A DNA stretch of 11,847 nt from Candidatus Aenigmatarchaeota archaeon (GTDB lineage: Archaea > Aenigmatarchaeota > Aenigmatarchaeia > QMZP01 > QMZT01): NCBI GenBank assembly GCA_041489155.1, contig JBGPQP010000020.1, positions 1 to 11,847 on the forward strand, in the 5' to 3' direction. The notes beneath the pieces were generated by a model, which searched no databases, was not told the origin of the DNA, and worked only from the letters and a program-made list of their open reading frames with translations. A program made the translations under genes and the position numbers. Shown in pieces: positions 2,045-7,075 of the stretch (position 1 is the first letter of the stretch; each line of letters begins with the position of its first letter).

Positions 2045-2072
2045 ATATTTATATATTTAAATAAACAAATAT
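2045..2072. promoter_or_regulatory. Putative ArsR operator overlapping a TATA-like promoter
   Basis: ATATTTATATATTT|AAATAAACAAATAT: 14+14 inverted repeat with 12/14 matches directly upstream of the ArsR gene. The AT-rich context raises the chance-match risk. Confidence 0.6.
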
Positions 2073-2079
2073 GTTTCAC

Positions 2080-2337
2080 ATGGACAAGGTCATACTTTTC
2101 AGGGCGCTGTCGGATGCCACCAGGCTGAAGATACTCGAACTTCTCAGGAGCGGCGAGAGATGCGCCTGCGAGATTCCGTCGAAAGTGGGGAAATCGCAGC
2201 CCAACGTTTCGCTGCATCTCAAGATACTGAAAGACGCCGGCATACTCGCCAGCAGGAAAGACGGCAAGAAGATTCTTTATCGTGTCGCTAGGCCCGAAAT
2301 TTACAAACTAATCGAAGGGGCGAAAAAGATAAAATGA
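2080..2337 (+). CDS. arsR: ArsR/SmtB-family metalloregulatory repressor
   Basis: FRALSDATRLKILELL, ERCACEI (compare ELCVCDL of As(III)-sensing ArsR), SQPNVSLHLKILKDAGI winged HTH. Alternative start 2071. Confidence 0.92.
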   Translation: MDKVILFRALSDATRLKILELLRSGERCACEIPSKVGKSQPNVSLHLKILKDAGILASRKDGKKILYRVARPEIYKLIEGAKKIK

Positions 2338-2346
2338 AGTGATTTG

Positions 2347-3459
2347 ATGGAAAACAGGAGTGCGTTTATCATTCTGGTCGTGGTTTTTCTGGCCCTTTAT
2401 TTCATGCCGGCCGGTTCCCTGCTCTTTGACGGGGCGATACTCAACGCCTTTTCGCTCCTGCACGAGTACGCGACCCAGCACGTCATAACGTGCCTTATAC
2501 CCGCGCTTTTCATAGCCGGTGCCATATCCGTCTTCATCAAAAAAGATTCGGTCATAAAATACATGGGCCCTTCCGCGAAAAAATACATGTCCTATACCAT
2601 AGCATCAGTATCGGGGGCGATACTCGCGGTGTGCTCATGCACGGTCCTTCCGCTGTTCGCCAGTATCAGGAAGCGTGGTGCGGGACTCGGACCGGCCGTG
2701 ACGTTCCTCTTCTCCGGCCCGGCGATAAACATAACTGCCATGTTCCTGACCATCAGCGTGCTCGGCTGGCAGATAGGCGCCGCCAGGATTGTTGCGTCCA
2801 TATCGCTGTCAATACTCGTCGGGCTGACCATGGCTTTCATCTTTCGGGAGAAGGCCGGGAGAGGCAAGTGGAAAATCAAGAAAAGGAAGGCCAAGCCGGA
2901 CGCCAAGGCTTTCGTTGCCGTGCTTTTCCTTTCACTCGTCGGCATACTAGTAGTCAATGGAATACAGACGGGCTTTTTCATAAAATATGCTGTCATGGCC
3001 GCGCTTGCGGTGATTGCAGTCTTCGTAGGCATTTTCGGCTTGAACAGGGAATCCTCGAAAGAATGGCTTGGAGAGACGTGGTTCTACGCCAAAAAACTTA
3101 TTCCCATGCTTTTCATCGGTGTTTTCATAGCCGGAGTCATCATGTATGTTATCCCGGAAGAATTTATCAGAAGTGTAGCCGGGCAAAACACTTTCTTGGG
3201 AAACCTTGCGGTCTCCGTATTCGGGGCTTTCATGTATTTCTCGACGCTTACAGAGATTCCGATAATGCAGGCGCTTATGACCAAGGGCATGCACGCAGGT
3301 CCTGCGTTGTCTTTGCTGTTATCTGGTCCGACCCTGAGCCTTCCCAGCATGCTGGCGATAAGGCAATTCATGGGCAACAAAAAGACGATAGCCTACGTCT
3401 TGCTGGTGATAATTTACTCCGCACTGGCCGGCTTTATTTTCGGGATGATTGCGACTTAG
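2347..3459 (+). CDS. ArsP/DUF318-family permease
   Basis: Polytopic membrane protein with LAVCSCTVLPLF, GPAVTFLFSGPAIN, YFSTLTEIPI and GPTLSLPSM motifs; 9 nt downstream of arsR. Confidence 0.88.
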   Translation: MENRSAFIILVVVFLALYFMPAGSLLFDGAILNAFSLLHEYATQHVITCLIPALFIAGAISVFIKKDSVIKYMGPSAKKYMSYTIASVSGAILAVCSCTVLPLFASIRKRGAGLGPAVTFLFSGPAINITAMFLTISVLGWQIGAARIVASISLSILVGLTMAFIFREKAGRGKWKIKKRKAKPDAKAFVAVLFLSLVGILVVNGIQTGFFIKYAVMAALAVIAVFVGIFGLNRESSKEWLGETWFYAKKLIPMLFIGVFIAGVIMYVIPEEFIRSVAGQNTFLGNLAVSVFGAFMYFSTLTEIPIMQALMTKGMHAGPALSLLLSGPTLSLPSMLAIRQFMGNKKTIAYVLLVIIYSALAGFIFGMIAT

Positions 3460-3521
3460 AACGTGAAGTGTCTTTCATTGTATTCTTTTTAAAGTGTGGC
3501 CGATGTATATCGATTTGACCC

Positions 3522-3597
3522 AAGCCCCAGGAGGGCAAAGAACTGAATTCTCAGATAAGAGGTTTCTACCTATTTATTATCAAGAAAGTTTAAAAGA
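3522..3597. repeat. 76-bp end module A (tRNA 3' copy + conserved block + 20 nt + GTTTAAAAGA)
   Basis: Aligns with 4251-4326: AAGCCC(C)AGGAGG, 23/29 identity over AGAAC...GGTTTCT, 20-nt unrelated stretch, identical GTTTAAAAGA. Confidence 0.85.
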
Positions 3598-3670
3598 GTG
3601 GTGTTTTTTAATAATTTACATGCAAAAAGGAAAGGAGGCGATGCACCCCAAAAGCAAACGAATTTCTGAC

Positions 3671-3934
3671 TTACTGTTTTTTGAAATTCCTGGCTGCATC
3701 AGCGACTTTTTTCCCTTCGTTGTCCAATACTTCTAGAACCCTTTTTTTAATATCCGCACTTGTCACTTCATTTCTGCTCTTGAAATGTTCCTCAACGTCT
3801 CTTACAGCACTGTCTGCTATTTCCGTGGACCTATTTTTGTCGATGTTTGCGTCTGCTGCTGCCCTTTCAATAGCTCTTCTAAGTTTATTACTGTCGAAGT
3901 CCTCTCGCTGGTCATCTCTTTTTATAATTTTCAT
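3671..3934 (-). CDS. Stand-alone ATP-cone domain protein
   Basis: MKIIKRDDQREDFDSNKLRRAI...VTSADIKKRVLEVL matches the ATP-cone pattern also present in NrdR and the RNR in this window; SD GGAGGT upstream. Confidence 0.88.
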   Translation of the reverse strand: MKIIKRDDQREDFDSNKLRRAIERAAADANIDKNRSTEIADSAVRDVEEHFKSRNEVTSADIKKRVLEVLDNEGKKVADAARNFKKQ

Positions 3935-4002
3935 AACAAATACCTCCAGTATTAAAGTAAGTGAAGATTAACCTGAGGGCATATAAAGTAATCTAGGAGG
4001 GG

Positions 4003-4197
4003 CTATGACGCATCAGTCCTTTTCCTGTTGGCATACCTCTCCAGCACATCCTTTTTTATGAACCAGTTCCTGCCCAGTTTGACTGCTTCAATTCTGTCTT
4101 TCCTGACAAGCTCGTAATCCAGAAACCGGGTTATGATTTCGTGATTGTTTTCGCTGGTAGAATTAAGCAGTCTTTCCTCACATCTTCCATACTCCAC
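4003..4197 (-). pseudogene. Excisionase-like (HTH_17/MerR-like) DNA-binding domain, probably N-terminally degenerate
   Basis: The C-terminal half YELVRKDRIEAVKLGRNWFIKKDVLERY fits the xis-type wing motif; the usual N-terminal 'T..EvA..L' helix is not recognisable. Confidence 0.55.
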
Positions 4198-4250
4198 GAG
4201 GACAGAAGACCCAGGACTGTGGACAATGGGGGATTTAAACCCCAGGTTGA

Positions 4251-4326
4251 AAGCCCAGGAGGACGTTAGAACCGAATTCCCATTTAGAAGGTTTCTTTGG
4301 AGTGGTTAGGACTTTGGTTTAAAAGA
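4251..4326. repeat. 76-bp end module B
   Basis: AAGCCCAGGAGGACGTTAGAACCGAATTCCCATTTAGAAGGTTTCT-N20-GTTTAAAAGA; same layout and length as 3522-3597. Confidence 0.85.
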
Positions 4327-4347
4327 TTTTGTTTGGACATGGATATG

Positions 4348-4917
4348 CTAGCTAATTGCAGGTATTACTTTCAGGCCCATGCCCTCCAGTCTTTTCTTTA
4401 ATTTTCCGAGGGCTTTGTGTATATCTTCAATGTTCCTGCCGCCCGCACATATTATTTTTCCTGATCCGAAAAGAAGGAAAACTATCCTAGGATTCCTCAT
4501 CCTGTAGACTAGTCCGGGAAATCTTTCAGGGTCGTACTCAACTTCGTTCATTTGTATTGCCATATCCTCCAGCATCAGCTTCGGTTTTGCTTCAATCTTT
4601 GTTGAGGCGACTATGTTTTCAATTATTATCGTGAATTTTTTGGGCATCGGTATTCCTGCCTTTCTTATGTCGTCCACCACCTTATTTATTGCCTCCTTTG
4701 CCATTTCTGTTGTTTTCGCTCCTGTGCACACAATCTTTCCCGTGGAGAATATGAGTGCGGAAGCTCTCGGATTGCTTATCCTATAGACCAGACCAGGGAA
4801 ACGTTCTGGATTGTATTCCGTGTTATTCATCTTTTCAACAAGTTTGTTAAGAGAAATTTTTCTGTTAAGAACTGCAAATGCCACGACGTTTTCTATCTTG
4901 ACCTGAAATTTAACCAT
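4348..4917 (-). CDS. tbp: TATA-box-binding protein (possibly an accessory paralog)
   Basis: Two TBP repeats: IENVVA...YNPERFPGLVYRISNPRASALIFSTGKIVCTGAK and IENIVAS...YDPERFPGLVYRMRNPRIVFLLFGSGKIICAGGR. ATG 4917 preferred because TTTTAATT lies 24-31 nt upstream; the ORF track starts at 4938. Confidence 0.96.
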   Translation of the reverse strand: MVKFQVKIENVVAFAVLNRKISLNKLVEKMNNTEYNPERFPGLVYRISNPRASALIFSTGKIVCTGAKTTEMAKEAINKVVDDIRKAGIPMPKKFTIIIENIVASTKIEAKPKLMLEDMAIQMNEVEYDPERFPGLVYRMRNPRIVFLLFGSGKIICAGGRNIEDIHKALGKLKKRLEGMGLKVIPAIS

Positions 4918-4955
4918 GAGAAAGTTTATCCGTAACATCTAATTAAAACAAGGTA

Positions 4956-5105
4956 AGCCCCAGGAGGGATTTGAACCCTCAACCTATCGATATCTTATGC
5001 GAATGACATGCACTGCATGCATGTCGGCATGCTGAAGTCATCAGCCGCGAAGGCTTCTTCATATCGATACAAGTCGATCGCTCTACCAGGTTGAGCTACT
5101 GAGGC
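4956..5105 (-). tRNA. tRNA-Thr(UGU) with a 76-nt intron at 37/38 (intron 4992-5067); CCA not encoded
   Basis: Minus strand: GCCTCAG TA GCTC AACCTGGTA GAGC G ATCGA CT TGT A [intron] A TCGAT AGGTT GAGGG TTCAAAT CCCTC CTGGGGC T. C32-U33-U34-G35 pairs with intron UAAG, followed by a 3-nt AU/A bulge (relaxed bulge-helix-bulge/loop). Confidence 0.95.
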
Positions 5106-5188
5106 AACGTTTCGATGGACGCAGGTGGAACCTGCGTCTGTGGCTTGTCCAGCGGATGACAATTGCTTGCGCAATTGTCGGCTTGCTG
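5003..5188 (-). repeat. Three related GAC...GTC hairpin units (tRNA intron 5003-5034; upstream 5115-5147 and 5156-5188)
   Basis: Perfect 8-9 bp stems GACATGCA/TGCATGTC, GACGCAGGT/ACCTGCGTC and GACAATTGC/GCAATTGTC, with shared flanks ATG(G)AC... and GGC(A/T)TG. Confidence 0.7.
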
Positions 5189-5274
5189 TCTGTCTGACTA
5201 ATTAACTTTTTTGCGCTTGAATGTTTAAATTAATGACTGCGACCAAATAAGAATATAATTATCAGGCGATAGGC

Positions 5275-6447
5275 ATGTTTGGCAGGCTGACGAAAGGGAT
5301 CGACGACCCGGACTACAGGAGAGCGCTAGTCATATTGTTCTTCTTTGCCCTGTTCTTCTCGTTCACTTCATTCACCCTTCCCGTTTACATGTCCTCGATA
5401 GGCATGAACGGCTACGAGATAGGCATCCTCATCGCGTTATATACCGTGGCCTCGATATTCGTCACCTTCCCGACCGGCGTGATAAACGACAAGTGGACGA
5501 TAAAGCTCACCGTGATAAGCGGCTTCCTCATGCTCTCGGTTTACTTCTTCGGCCTGGGCTTTTTCGAGAGCTTCGTGATATTCATGCCGCTCTTCCTCAT
5601 CGGAGGGCTTGGCAACAACATATGCGACATCTCGCTGCGCTCGCTGGCTTTCAAGACTGACATGAAGGGCATGGAGGGCAGGAAGTTCGGAACGTTCAGC
5701 CTTGTAAAATTCCTCTCGGCTTCTCTGGGTCTTTTCATCGGCGGCTCGCTAGTCTTCCTCGTCGGCTTCAAGCTCGGCTTCGAGATAATGGGCCTGCTTT
5801 ACCTGCTGGTCATACCCTTCATCTCATTCAAGTCGATTTCCAAGAGTACAATAAAGCTCGGCCAGTACAGGAAGGACGTCCTCACAAAAAAGGTGGTTTT
5901 CCTCGCCGTGGTGATGTTCATCTTTTCTCTGCACTGGGGCTCGGAAAGGACGACGTTCGGCCTCTTCCTGAAGAACGGCCTGGGACTTGACATATTCTGG
6001 CTGGGAGTTTACACTTCGCTTTCGCTCCCCTTCTTGGGCATAGGCTCGTATTACTTCGGCAGGAGAATAGACGCAGGCAAGAGCAACCTGAAGCTCGTCT
6101 ATGTCGCCGGCATGATGATGTCAGGCGTTTCCTACATTCTCAATACAGTGCCTGTCCCGTGGTTCTCTTTCGTCATGCGCATGTTCCACGAGTTCGGCGA
6201 CGGCATGGCCGACATAGCGGTTTACTTCTGGATATCGAAGCTGTTCAAAGTCGAGCGCGTGGGCGGCAGCTCCACTGTATTGTTTACTGTGATGCTGCTG
6301 GGGCAGATAACGGGCTCGCTGATATTCGGCCCGCTCGGGCAGATTGCCGGCTACCATGTGCCCATCATAATAACCGGCATAACCTCCATCGCAAGCGCAT
6401 TACTGCTGCTGGTCTTTGTGAAAATATTCAAAGTCAGCGAGAAATAG
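5275..6447 (+). CDS. Major facilitator superfamily transporter
   Basis: 390 aa with about 12 hydrophobic segments; motif A-like GVINDKWTIK after TM2 and GRRIDAGK in the second half. Confidence 0.88.
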   Translation: MFGRLTKGIDDPDYRRALVILFFFALFFSFTSFTLPVYMSSIGMNGYEIGILIALYTVASIFVTFPTGVINDKWTIKLTVISGFLMLSVYFFGLGFFESFVIFMPLFLIGGLGNNICDISLRSLAFKTDMKGMEGRKFGTFSLVKFLSASLGLFIGGSLVFLVGFKLGFEIMGLLYLLVIPFISFKSISKSTIKLGQYRKDVLTKKVVFLAVVMFIFSLHWGSERTTFGLFLKNGLGLDIFWLGVYTSLSLPFLGIGSYYFGRRIDAGKSNLKLVYVAGMMMSGVSYILNTVPVPWFSFVMRMFHEFGDGMADIAVYFWISKLFKVERVGGSSTVLFTVMLLGQITGSLIFGPLGQIAGYHVPIIITGITSIASALLLLVFVKIFKVSEK

Positions 6448-6450
6448 CAG

Positions 6451-7020
6451 CTAGCCCTCGGACTTTGCGATGCCTAGCTTTTTGGCGAGGGCGATTATTG
6501 CCTTGCGGAATTCGCTGAATGTGCCGTCATTGCTGACCGCGAGGTCAGCGAGTTTTATGGTCTCGTTTATTATCTTTTCCGTCTCCCTCTGCTCGATTTC
6601 CAAAAACTGCTTCATGGTCAGACGGCCCTCGCCCTTCGTGCCGCGCCTGACGACGCGCTCGTAGCGTTTCTTTGTGCTGCAGCTCACATAAACGAGCCTG
6701 AAACCGTCGCCGAACCTTTTCTTGAAGTAGCTGACTTCCTCTGGATAGCGCACGCCACTTATCGCCCAATAGCCTTCGGATTCTATCTTGTCGCAGATGA
6801 GTTTTGTCAGGATATGCTTGCCGCCCTTCCTGCGCATTTCCAGCGCCAGGTCTATAAGGTTTTCGCGCGTCACTTCCTTCCCCGTCTGTCTGAGGAGCGG
6901 CGAGAGGACGTCGTTCGTATACGTCAAGACGCGGAAGCCGTACTTCGCCTTGAGATATTCGGCCATCGTGTCCTTCCCCGATCCCCGCTTGCCCGTCAGG
7001 CCCAGAACAAGGAATTCCAT
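6451..7020 (-). CDS. P-loop nucleotide kinase-like protein (dephospho-CoA kinase/NMP kinase-like, archaeal COG0237 type)
   Basis: N-terminal Walker A GLTGKRGSGKDT, SGVRYPEE, lid-like RYERVVRRG and ADLAVSNDGT. Confidence 0.8.
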   Translation of the reverse strand: MEFLVLGLTGKRGSGKDTMAEYLKAKYGFRVLTYTNDVLSPLLRQTGKEVTRENLIDLALEMRRKGGKHILTKLICDKIESEGYWAISGVRYPEEVSYFKKRFGDGFRLVYVSCSTKKRYERVVRRGTKGEGRLTMKQFLEIEQRETEKIINETIKLADLAVSNDGTFSEFRKAIIALAKKLGIAKSEG

Positions 7021-7075
7021 TTATAGAAATTGCAGAGTGGACTTAAATAAAATTTACTATAATAGGTGTGATATT

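Follow-up and report, generated by a model that had tools for sequence, protein, structure and literature searches.

The stretch of DNA analysed here, which we call the window, is the entire 11,847-bp contig C20 of a Candidatus Aenigmatarchaeota genome (G000) whose assembly comprises 1.13 Mb in 39 contigs and is 89.65% complete. It carries a tRNA-Thr(TGT) gene and, next to the 3' end of this gene, two small gene units separated and bounded by copies of that end. Read in the orientation of the tRNA, the layout is tRNA, a gene for a TATA-binding protein (TBP), module B, a small helix-turn-helix (HTH) open reading frame (ORF) together with a gene for an ATP-cone protein, module A, and then a permease gene (Table 1). 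An earlier note made from the sequence alone (the original prediction) had drawn this same layout, and a Pfam scan supports it; the scan also places a gene for an MFS transporter among those that flank the array. The tRNA gene itself is interrupted, and default ARAGORN called no tRNA in the window. In intron mode (-i), ARAGORN returned tRNA-Thr(tgt) at c[4956,5105] with a 76-nt intron, and the Rfam tRNA family (RF00005) matched 5105-4956 on the minus strand with 55.1 bits (gathering score 29) and a 78-nt insert after the anticodon loop.

Table 1. Features of the array and its flanks, in window coordinates.
Feature	Position	Strand	Evidence
ArsR-family regulator (2071-2337) and ArsP-type permease (2344-3459), distal flank	2071-3459	+	Pfam HTH_5, 60.8 bits; ArsP_1, 272 bits
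60-nt spacer from permease stop to core A, missing in the G004 empty site	3462-3521	.	Comparison with G004
Module A: exact core (3522-3535) and 62-nt arm of unit 1	3522-3597	.	Arm model R1, 69.1 bits
Stand-alone ATP-cone protein, 87 amino acids, cargo of unit 1	3671-3934	-	PF03477, 50.6 bits
Chimeric 64-amino-acid ORF: integrase N-terminal remnant (residues 10-33) joined to an HTH_17/excisionase-type domain of which the 3' half is present (residues 28-59)	4003-4197	-	BLASTP, Pfam
tRNA-proximal arm of unit 1, integrase-upstream type; contains palindrome GGGGTTTAAATCCCC and, at 4206-4219, another core-like stretch	4198-4250	-	79% to the tRNA-Thr(CGT)-integrase stretch of G004:C1
Module B: degenerate core (4251-4262) and 62-nt arm of unit 2	4251-4326	.	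Arm model R1, 76.7 bits
Unit 2, TBP cassette: short tRNA-proximal end with TATA-like TTTTAATTA, TBP gene and arm B	4263-4954	-	Copies in G004, L049, L050, L051 and L067 bounded by cores
TBP paralogue with both repeats intact; start at ATG 4938 (196 amino acids) or, likelier, ATG 4917 (189 amino acids)	4348-4938	-	PF00352, 183.3 bits, two stretches
Core copy 1, the tRNA 3' end AAGCCCCAGGAGGG	4955-4968	.	TBP-unit similarity to G004, L050 and L051 stops within the core
tRNA-Thr(TGT); an intron of 76-78 nt follows the anticodon loop; the 3' end serves as integration target (attB)	4956-5105	-	Rfam, ARAGORN -i

The repeats are readily seen in the sequence. The last 14 bases of the tRNA gene, AAGCCCCAGGAGGG on the plus strand, recur without a single difference (14/14) at 3522-3535 and, with one base missing, in a degenerate copy at 4251-4262. 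As the original prediction had noticed, both copies run on into a shared sequence that is not part of the tRNA: 3539-3567 and 4268-4296 agree at 23/29 nt (79%), and GTTTAAAAGA is found in both at the identical offset of 729. Aligned without gaps, the two 76-nt modules, each made up of a core and an arm, agree at 47/76 positions. Over both strands of the genome, 2,260,024 positions in all, each is the best match of the other and the next best stand at 40 and 41, which confirms that their likeness is not due to chance; when the 14 tRNA-derived bases are set aside, 39/62 positions agree and the next best reach 36 and 34. A profile of the two modules run with nhmmer against the genome found no further module below E 0.7, and BLAST of the genome with module A missed even module B. 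The sole other core-like site in the genome is on contig C9, beside a different and more distant arm. A local duplication, which the original prediction had listed as a possible source of the similarity, is ruled out because the cargos of the two units are unrelated and the arm family is present in other genera.

Comparison with relatives shows where the inserted DNA begins and ends. All of the relatives used here are metagenome assemblies; G003 and G004 are congeners of G000, and L049, L050, L051, L064 and L067 are metagenome contigs. We searched 41 related genomes with window 2300-6450 and compared the fetched regions by BLAST. In G004 a stretch of 1,493 nt, 3462-4954, is missing, and window 2045-3461 (88.6% identity) directly abuts 4955-7052 (72.1%), leaving 2 nt between the permease stop and the tRNA end. 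The insert thus has the hallmarks of an element integrated at a tRNA end: the 3' end of the tRNA stands on one side of it and a direct repeat of that end on the other, and a relative carries an empty site whose breakpoint, with window 3461 and 4955 adjacent, is at the tRNA end. Its G+C content (0.385-0.445) is lower than that of both flanks (0.48-0.56). An empty site in relatives and the base composition were both among the checks that the original prediction had proposed, and both came out in its favour.

The nature of the modules is indicated by related elements that retain an integrase. At the identical tRNA-Thr(TGT) site of G003, a gene for a 374-residue tyrosine integrase (PF00589, 80.5 bits) directly adjoins the tRNA and is followed by genes for a Rep_1-type replication protein and an Mrr-like nuclease and by unannotated genes. 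This element ends after 9.6 kb in an arm and a core, beyond which come unit 1 (88.7% identity) with its own arm and core and then a Fic gene. In L067, the gene next to a tRNA-Thr(CGT) encodes an integrase (68% identity to the G003 enzyme; PF00589, 81.1 bits); Rep, an arm and core, a 0.4-kb one-gene unit, a further arm and core, and the TBP unit come after it in that order. The position of arm and core at the far end of both integrase elements marks the module as the predicted integrase-distal attachment arm of a family of integrative, plasmid-like elements that are small (4-10 kb), encode a Rep protein and carry their integrase beside tRNA-Thr. Part of the arm motif recurs in inverted orientation beside the integrase gene (L067 938-977, E 8.6e-4; in G003 by eye), and the direct and inverted motifs together would form the arrangement expected of recombinase-binding sites that flank a crossover region.

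We built a sequence-only arm model, R1, from five modules. It yielded 18 matches in 16 sources among the sequences examined, so the expectation that further copies would lie next to tRNA-Thr genes with different cargo was borne out. The consensus consists of a block AGAACYGAATTCYCA..TARRRGGTTTCT, about 20 A/T-rich bases, and then GTTTAAAAG. The model matches 7 of the 23 genomes of the family (two genera strongly, a third weakly) and, at E<=0.001, 12 of the 91 genomes of the order, where only 6 besides G000 are strong and the matches outside the family are weak. The integrase family is found in 24 of these 91 genomes at E<=1e-20. Same-strand tRNA ends lie at most 400 nt upstream of 14 of the 30 integrase loci (ARAGORN); tRNA-Thr accounts for 6 of them if the G003 gene, miscalled as Tyr, is included, and at the remaining 16 loci ARAGORN may have missed tRNAs with unusual introns. 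We note that in another genus (G021:C29, L033 1501-1992) just 424 nt separate an arm and core from the tRNA-Thr(CGT) 3' end, and this interval holds no ORF of at least 60 amino acids; it looks like an empty or eroded unit.

Unit 1 retains traces of such an integrase. Residues 10-33 of its 64-amino-acid ORF match residues 1-24 of the 365-residue integrase of G004:C1 (15/24 identical, E 7e-9, BLASTP), which sits after tRNA-Thr(CGT) and scores 93 bits with PF00589, and the DNA that runs from core B into the ORF start shares 78.7% identity with the same integrase locus. Taken together, the N-terminal remnant and the likeness of the upstream DNA show that unit 1 is a deletion derivative of an integrase-bearing element, and the ORF a deletion chimera. 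The original prediction had called this ORF xis-like, which needs correction: the partial HTH_17 match in the rest of the ORF scores 23.9 bits, under the Pfam cut-off of 27, and the N-terminus is an integrase fragment. The 24-residue remnant is also present in L049, L050 and L064 (tblastn), and the 87-residue ATP-cone ORF is preserved in these three contigs and in G003. The proximal motif of unit 1 (core, then palindrome GGGGTWTAAAKCCCC, then a second core-like stretch) also stands at the start of four other units in L049. The second core-like stretch, CAGTCTTGGGTCTT, lies about 20 nt past the palindrome both in the window (4206-4219) and at the proximal ends of the L049 units, and it may, with the palindrome, represent further recombinase-binding sites.

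Unit 2 is absent from the corresponding tRNA site in G004. Its TBP gene encodes two repeats that are both above the Pfam gathering score, and the genome search recovered both halves as well. At the amino acid level the protein is 70.6% identical to the complete TBP encoded on contig C3 of G000 (C3:55414-55974) and 84% identical to a chromosomal copy in G014. The cassette seems to bring its own promoter, as judged by eye from TTTTAATTA, a TATA-like sequence that precedes the second TBP ATG by about 25 nt. The other TBP loci of G000 are incomplete: C16:19268-19570 is cut by a contig end, and C14:471-656 is a 60-residue TBP fragment followed by a stop. We also considered whether TBP might generally be an element-borne gene in these genomes and rejected the idea; there are no cores near the 84%-identical copy in G014 or at the C3, C14 and C16 loci of G000. 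A literature search, limited to titles, turned up no relevant title on mobile TBP genes.

The units recur in other settings. The TBP unit (window 4254-4967) has 93-98% identical copies in six or more contexts, some beside tRNA-Thr(TGT) and others beside tRNA-Thr(CGT), and their boundaries are always at cores. G000 carries, in tRNA orientation, tRNA(TGT), TBP and unit 1, and L050 carries the same two units behind tRNA(CGT) (97.9% over 1,433 nt). In G004, the TBP unit stands between an Imm5-like unit and a gene for a small Cys-rich membrane protein flanking the tRNA-Thr(CGT) locus (97.8% over 715 nt); in L067 it follows the integrase element (99% over 104 nt, up to the contig end); in L051 it is the last unit before the Fic flank (95.8%); and in L064 the end of the TBP unit is followed by unit 1 and a further unit (89.5%). 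The longest array, in L049 (2549-9890), extends over 7.3 kb and places six integrase-less units between tRNA-Thr(TGT) and Fic. The first encodes ParE with RHH, the second MazE/PIN, a DUF2283 protein and a nucleotidyltransferase; the third is TBP and the fourth the window's unit 1 (94.5%); the fifth encodes a KaiC-like ATPase and a small membrane protein, and the sixth an HTH-nucleotidyltransferase with HEPN. Most of this cargo consists of toxin-antitoxin-type pairs. TBP and unit 1 are adjacent in G000, L049, L050 and L064 and in contigs of sequencing runs X4 and X6. In every case the similarity between contexts stops inside the 13-14-nt core (window 4254 and 4967), and the chromosomal DNA around the arrays is much less alike (73.1% in L049, 72.4% in L051, 72-88.6% in G004).

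The order of the units varies too. L051 carries ParE-RHH, nucleotidyltransferase-HEPN, TBP and then Fic; the nucleotidyltransferase-HEPN unit thus precedes TBP in L051 and follows it in L049, with the units in question 87% and 93% identical. Since two shared units stand in reversed order, deletions alone are not sufficient to derive the arrays from one another. G000 itself has a third integrase-less unit at its other tRNA-Thr gene (C9:43721-44470, L103). There, an intron-bearing tRNA-Thr(CGT), which ARAGORN called Ser, is followed by a 133-residue Imm5-like gene (149.4 bits; 58% identical to that of G004), and then by the more distant arm, a core copy CCCTCCCGGGGCTT at 44348-44361 and a gene for a small Cys-rich membrane protein.

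These observations suggest to us that 3462-4954 is probably a two-unit array of integrase-less mini-elements of the cis-mobilizable type, flanked by attachment (att) sites, inserted at the 3' end of tRNA-Thr(TGT) and moved by the integrases of small integrative plasmids. We infer, as did the original prediction, that the recombinase acts in trans and that the module is its predicted recognition site. Recombination between any two cores would release a circle with a complete attP, in which the core joins the arm to the proximal end. If a co-resident or incoming element then provided an integrase, the circle could be re-inserted into either tRNA-Thr gene, so that units would move alone or joined to their neighbours and would accrete into cassette arrays.

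The cargo of the window is integrase-less, as the original prediction had stated: a whole-genome search with PF00589 gave no match in the window, where only the 24-residue N-terminal remnant in unit 1 is left, and matched only contigs C15 and C2 (broken trace). No integrase lies beside the arrays of L049 and L051. The idea that an integrase would be found elsewhere holds for relatives, where the matching element family lies beside tRNA genes in G003 and L067, and fails for the genome itself, where no cognate was found. We considered the C15 recombinase as a possible helper and set it aside; it is the sole match of the G003 integrase in G000, the two share just 29% identity over 144 residues, and nothing ties the protein to tRNA-Thr. 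The C15 gene (C15:4651-5229; L010 1438-2016) encodes a minimal tyrosine recombinase of 192 residues that consists of the catalytic domain only (PF00589, 124.7 bits), and it lies beside an unannotated gene of 201 residues. Because no cognate integrase is seen in G000, its units are probably immobile, and the array is probably at rest until a helper arrives.

Several results weigh against such mobility. Neither PF00589 nor the G003 integrase as query found a cognate integrase in G000, in an assembly that is 89.65% complete. Parts of window 3300-5200 are contained in 24 sequencing runs from 20 studies, none of them recorded as RNA; we examined four of the 24 (X3-X6), as contigs only. The circle junctions that the original prediction had hoped to see in reads did not appear: the contigs of these four runs hold no circle junctions, excision products or unit-skipping joints, a weak negative given that contigs drop rare variants and that stretches without coverage are uninformative. 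Other tRNAs or strains account for the joints that were detected in X3-X6, which are located in the tRNA intron or in the MFS region. IMG/VR contained no relative of the L067 integrase and no episomal form, and a 29-nt degenerate version of the arm motif had 0 matches in it. No integrase remnant is present in the TBP unit, whose origin by deletion is an assumption; the copy of this unit in G004 is only 528 nt from a contig end; and every source compared is a metagenome assembly.

The same evidence could be read as fixed scars, left by two ordinary integrase elements that integrated one after the other, decayed in place and never moved again once the integrase was lost. Unit 1 does retain an integrase N-terminal remnant, no integrase was found in G000, and the passages of PMC8371274 on archaeal elements report loss of the integrase after integration. 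The original prediction had itself named decayed ends of ordinary elements as an outcome that would overturn it, and for unit 1 this applies in part, in that the unit appears to derive from an integrase element. It nevertheless keeps both of its ends and recurs elsewhere at 89-98%. Units with identical boundaries and 89-98% identity are found at two tRNA-Thr genes, with varied neighbours and in varied orders, between flanks of about 72% identity, and identical deletions that arose independently are implausible; we therefore regard fixed scars as unlikely.

We give an equally low probability to the view that the units are real insertions that were reshuffled by homologous recombination or gene conversion through cores, arms or flanking tRNA genes, with no integrase acting in trans. 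Related arms and identical cores are available at both tRNA-Thr loci, and exchange of modules through homologous recombination between tandemly integrated archaeal elements has been proposed in the part of PMC8371274 that deals with them. Against this, the similarity between contexts stops within cores of 13-14 nt, neighbouring arms are only about 60% alike (47/76) and thus short and divergent for homologous exchange, and integrase elements with matching arms share the arrays.

Two further explanations can be largely dismissed. It is very improbable that the modules are small RNA genes or split-tRNA halves that end in the acceptor 3' strand: read on the gene strand, they do end in the tRNA 3' end, start with a TTTAAA box and share GTTC at the T-loop position (by eye), in a lineage whose tRNA genes are heavily disrupted, but Rfam at E<=1 matches only the complete tRNA, no T arm can be drawn since only 14 nt match the tRNA and the 5' strand of the T-stem is missing, single-strand folds are not consistently better than those of shuffled sequences (z -2.2, +1.0, -1.8, +1.5), and the modules mark insertion boundaries in all comparisons. 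An assembly or binning artefact, in which the repeats would be chimeric joins between DNA of different strains, has a similarly negligible chance; all of the data are metagenomic and the contigs of G004 break at or near cores, yet Logan contigs from other runs span the junctions (permease/core A in X3 record 2, with 0 differences; core B in X4 record 12 and X6 record 30) and L050 carries the matching two-unit tandem.

An array of att-flanked, integrase-less mini-elements has clear counterparts in bacteria. Passages of PMC5704250 on ICESt1/ICESt3-type islands of Streptococcus thermophilus define cis-mobilizable elements (CIMEs) and propose a three-step accretion model: integration, decay with the att sites retained, and integration of the next element. 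The array fits this definition and model closely. In CIMEs, the genes for integration and transfer are lost while attL and attR are kept; they arise when an integrase-bearing element decays, they lie beside functional elements in a tandem arrangement at a target gene's 3' end, and composites that contain them can move together. The window shows the loss of these genes and the retained ends: both units have cores and arms at both ends, and the only genes inside are those for TBP, the ATP-cone protein and the chimeric remnant. An origin by decay is visible in unit 1, with its integrase remnant and integrase-upstream arm, and not in the TBP unit, which is without a remnant; accretion is seen in G003 and L067, where an integrase element lies beside units of the window's type. 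The array differs from CIMEs in that its units hold 1-2 genes (0.4-1.4 kb) with up to six in a row, its host belongs to the DPANN archaea, the helper is a small, non-conjugative Rep-type element, and mobilisation is deduced from comparison. The ssrA islands of Dehalococcoides are likewise described, in part of PMC3146451, as tandem islands bounded by short direct repeats with a conserved motif beside the repeat, 15 of them without an integration module and suggested to be CIMEs. They share with the array many tandem units downstream of one small-RNA gene, repeats of its 3' end and a neighbouring motif, and they differ in being bacterial, in using a serine recombinase and a tmRNA target, and in carrying rdhA cargo on islands of several kb.

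Other tRNA-targeting systems are closer in target and further in content. The sections of bioRxiv 10.1101/2020.12.28.424599 on Prochlorococcus tycheposon islands report that elements integrate one after another at a small number of tRNA genes, with partial copies of the tRNA between them, that remnants of integrases occur and that the cargo acts as 'plug-in' cassettes; tycheposons carry their own integrase and replication modules, whereas most units here have neither and possess a defined 62-nt arm. In archaea, elements of class II or pNOB8 type, which keep the integrase gene intact when they integrate, are treated in part of PMC8371274, and tandem integration in passages of PMC8371274 and PMC6563490. 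The elements of G003, L067 and G004:C1 resemble them in their intact integrase beside the tRNA, the repeat of the tRNA end on the far side and the tandem occupation of a site, while the window holds integrase-less derivatives only. In the literature consulted, which included the integrase passages of a paper on Aenigmarchaeota (PMC8407114), we came across neither an account of such single-gene arrays nor one of this element family in Aenigmarchaeota.

The original prediction had also likened the units to integron cassettes. Integrons consist of an integrase (IntI), an attI site and cassettes with attC sites, in arrays of mostly single-gene cassettes, each with a conserved site, whose order varies and whose cargo frequently includes toxin-antitoxin genes. 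The arrays resemble them in their mostly single-gene units with a conserved end site, variable order and toxin-antitoxin cargo, and differ in having no resident integrase or attI, arms without single-strand hairpins, a tRNA gene as anchor and, at least for the TBP cassette, what seems by eye to be a promoter of its own. DNA folds of both arms on both strands, calculated in search of attC-like folding, gave z scores of -2.19, +1.03, -1.83 and +1.53 and no shared structure. The comparison is therefore useful as an analogy and does not extend to a resident integrase or a folded attC-type site; the array is a CIME-type accretion array, not an integron. A bolder version, which we put forward tentatively and consider somewhat less probable than its opposite, is that Aenigmarchaeota run a tRNA-anchored functional analogue of the integron, in which small integrative plasmids would lend the integrases that excise single-gene cassettes, each with an arm of about 62 nt and a tRNA tail, and that stack them anew at isoacceptor tRNA-Thr genes after exchange between cells. 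If this were true, genome-reduced symbionts would draw on a common stock of genes for toxin-antitoxin systems, for immunity and even for basal transcription (TBP).

The principle, accretion of att-flanked elements that lack an integrase, is already established in bacteria; the present case is set apart by its units of one or two genes, the defined 62-nt arm, the DPANN host and the TBP cargo. DPANN genomes are tiny and their gain of genes is poorly understood, and the two tRNA-Thr genes represent a defined hot spot that collects one-gene units. An integrase together with arm-and-core substrates offers a concrete, testable route of gene flow, and the arm model provides a handle with which to search metagenomes for cargo. 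The presence of a general transcription factor, as an intact extra TBP, in a mobile pool with immunity and toxin-antitoxin genes bears on the origin of the multi-TBP repertoires of archaea.

The distal flank of the array shows some variation of its own. The ArsR-permease pair is 88.6% identical between G000 and G004, where the remaining flanks reach 72-77%. At this site G003, L049 and L051 carry Fic without the permease, and G000 carries the permease without Fic. In G004 the pair (window 2071-3521 against G004:C2, L024 2985-4520) lies between the tRNA and another core copy, which is followed by a remnant of the integrase-upstream type and a Fic gene; the ArsR-permease pair may itself be a captured unit.

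Two contigs of G004 end at its arrays. G004:C1 (15 kb) ends inside the integrase element at tRNA-Thr(CGT) (L026), and the 1.1-Mb contig G004:C2 ends (L025 7200-7252) a few bases from the expected core, just before the Imm5-like unit. Perhaps the assembly breaks at the array because the population is mixed there.

Finally, the T stems of the tRNA-Thr genes differ by compensatory changes, and one of the two forms, CTGGG/CCCAG, may be a poorer integration target or a product of integration. The stem reads GAGGG/CCCTC in the window's tRNA-Thr(TGT) (4969-4985), G003 and L050, and CTGGG/CCCAG in the tRNA-Thr(TGT) of G004 (L024 2950-2975) and the tRNA-Thr(CGT) of G000 (C9:43815-43843).

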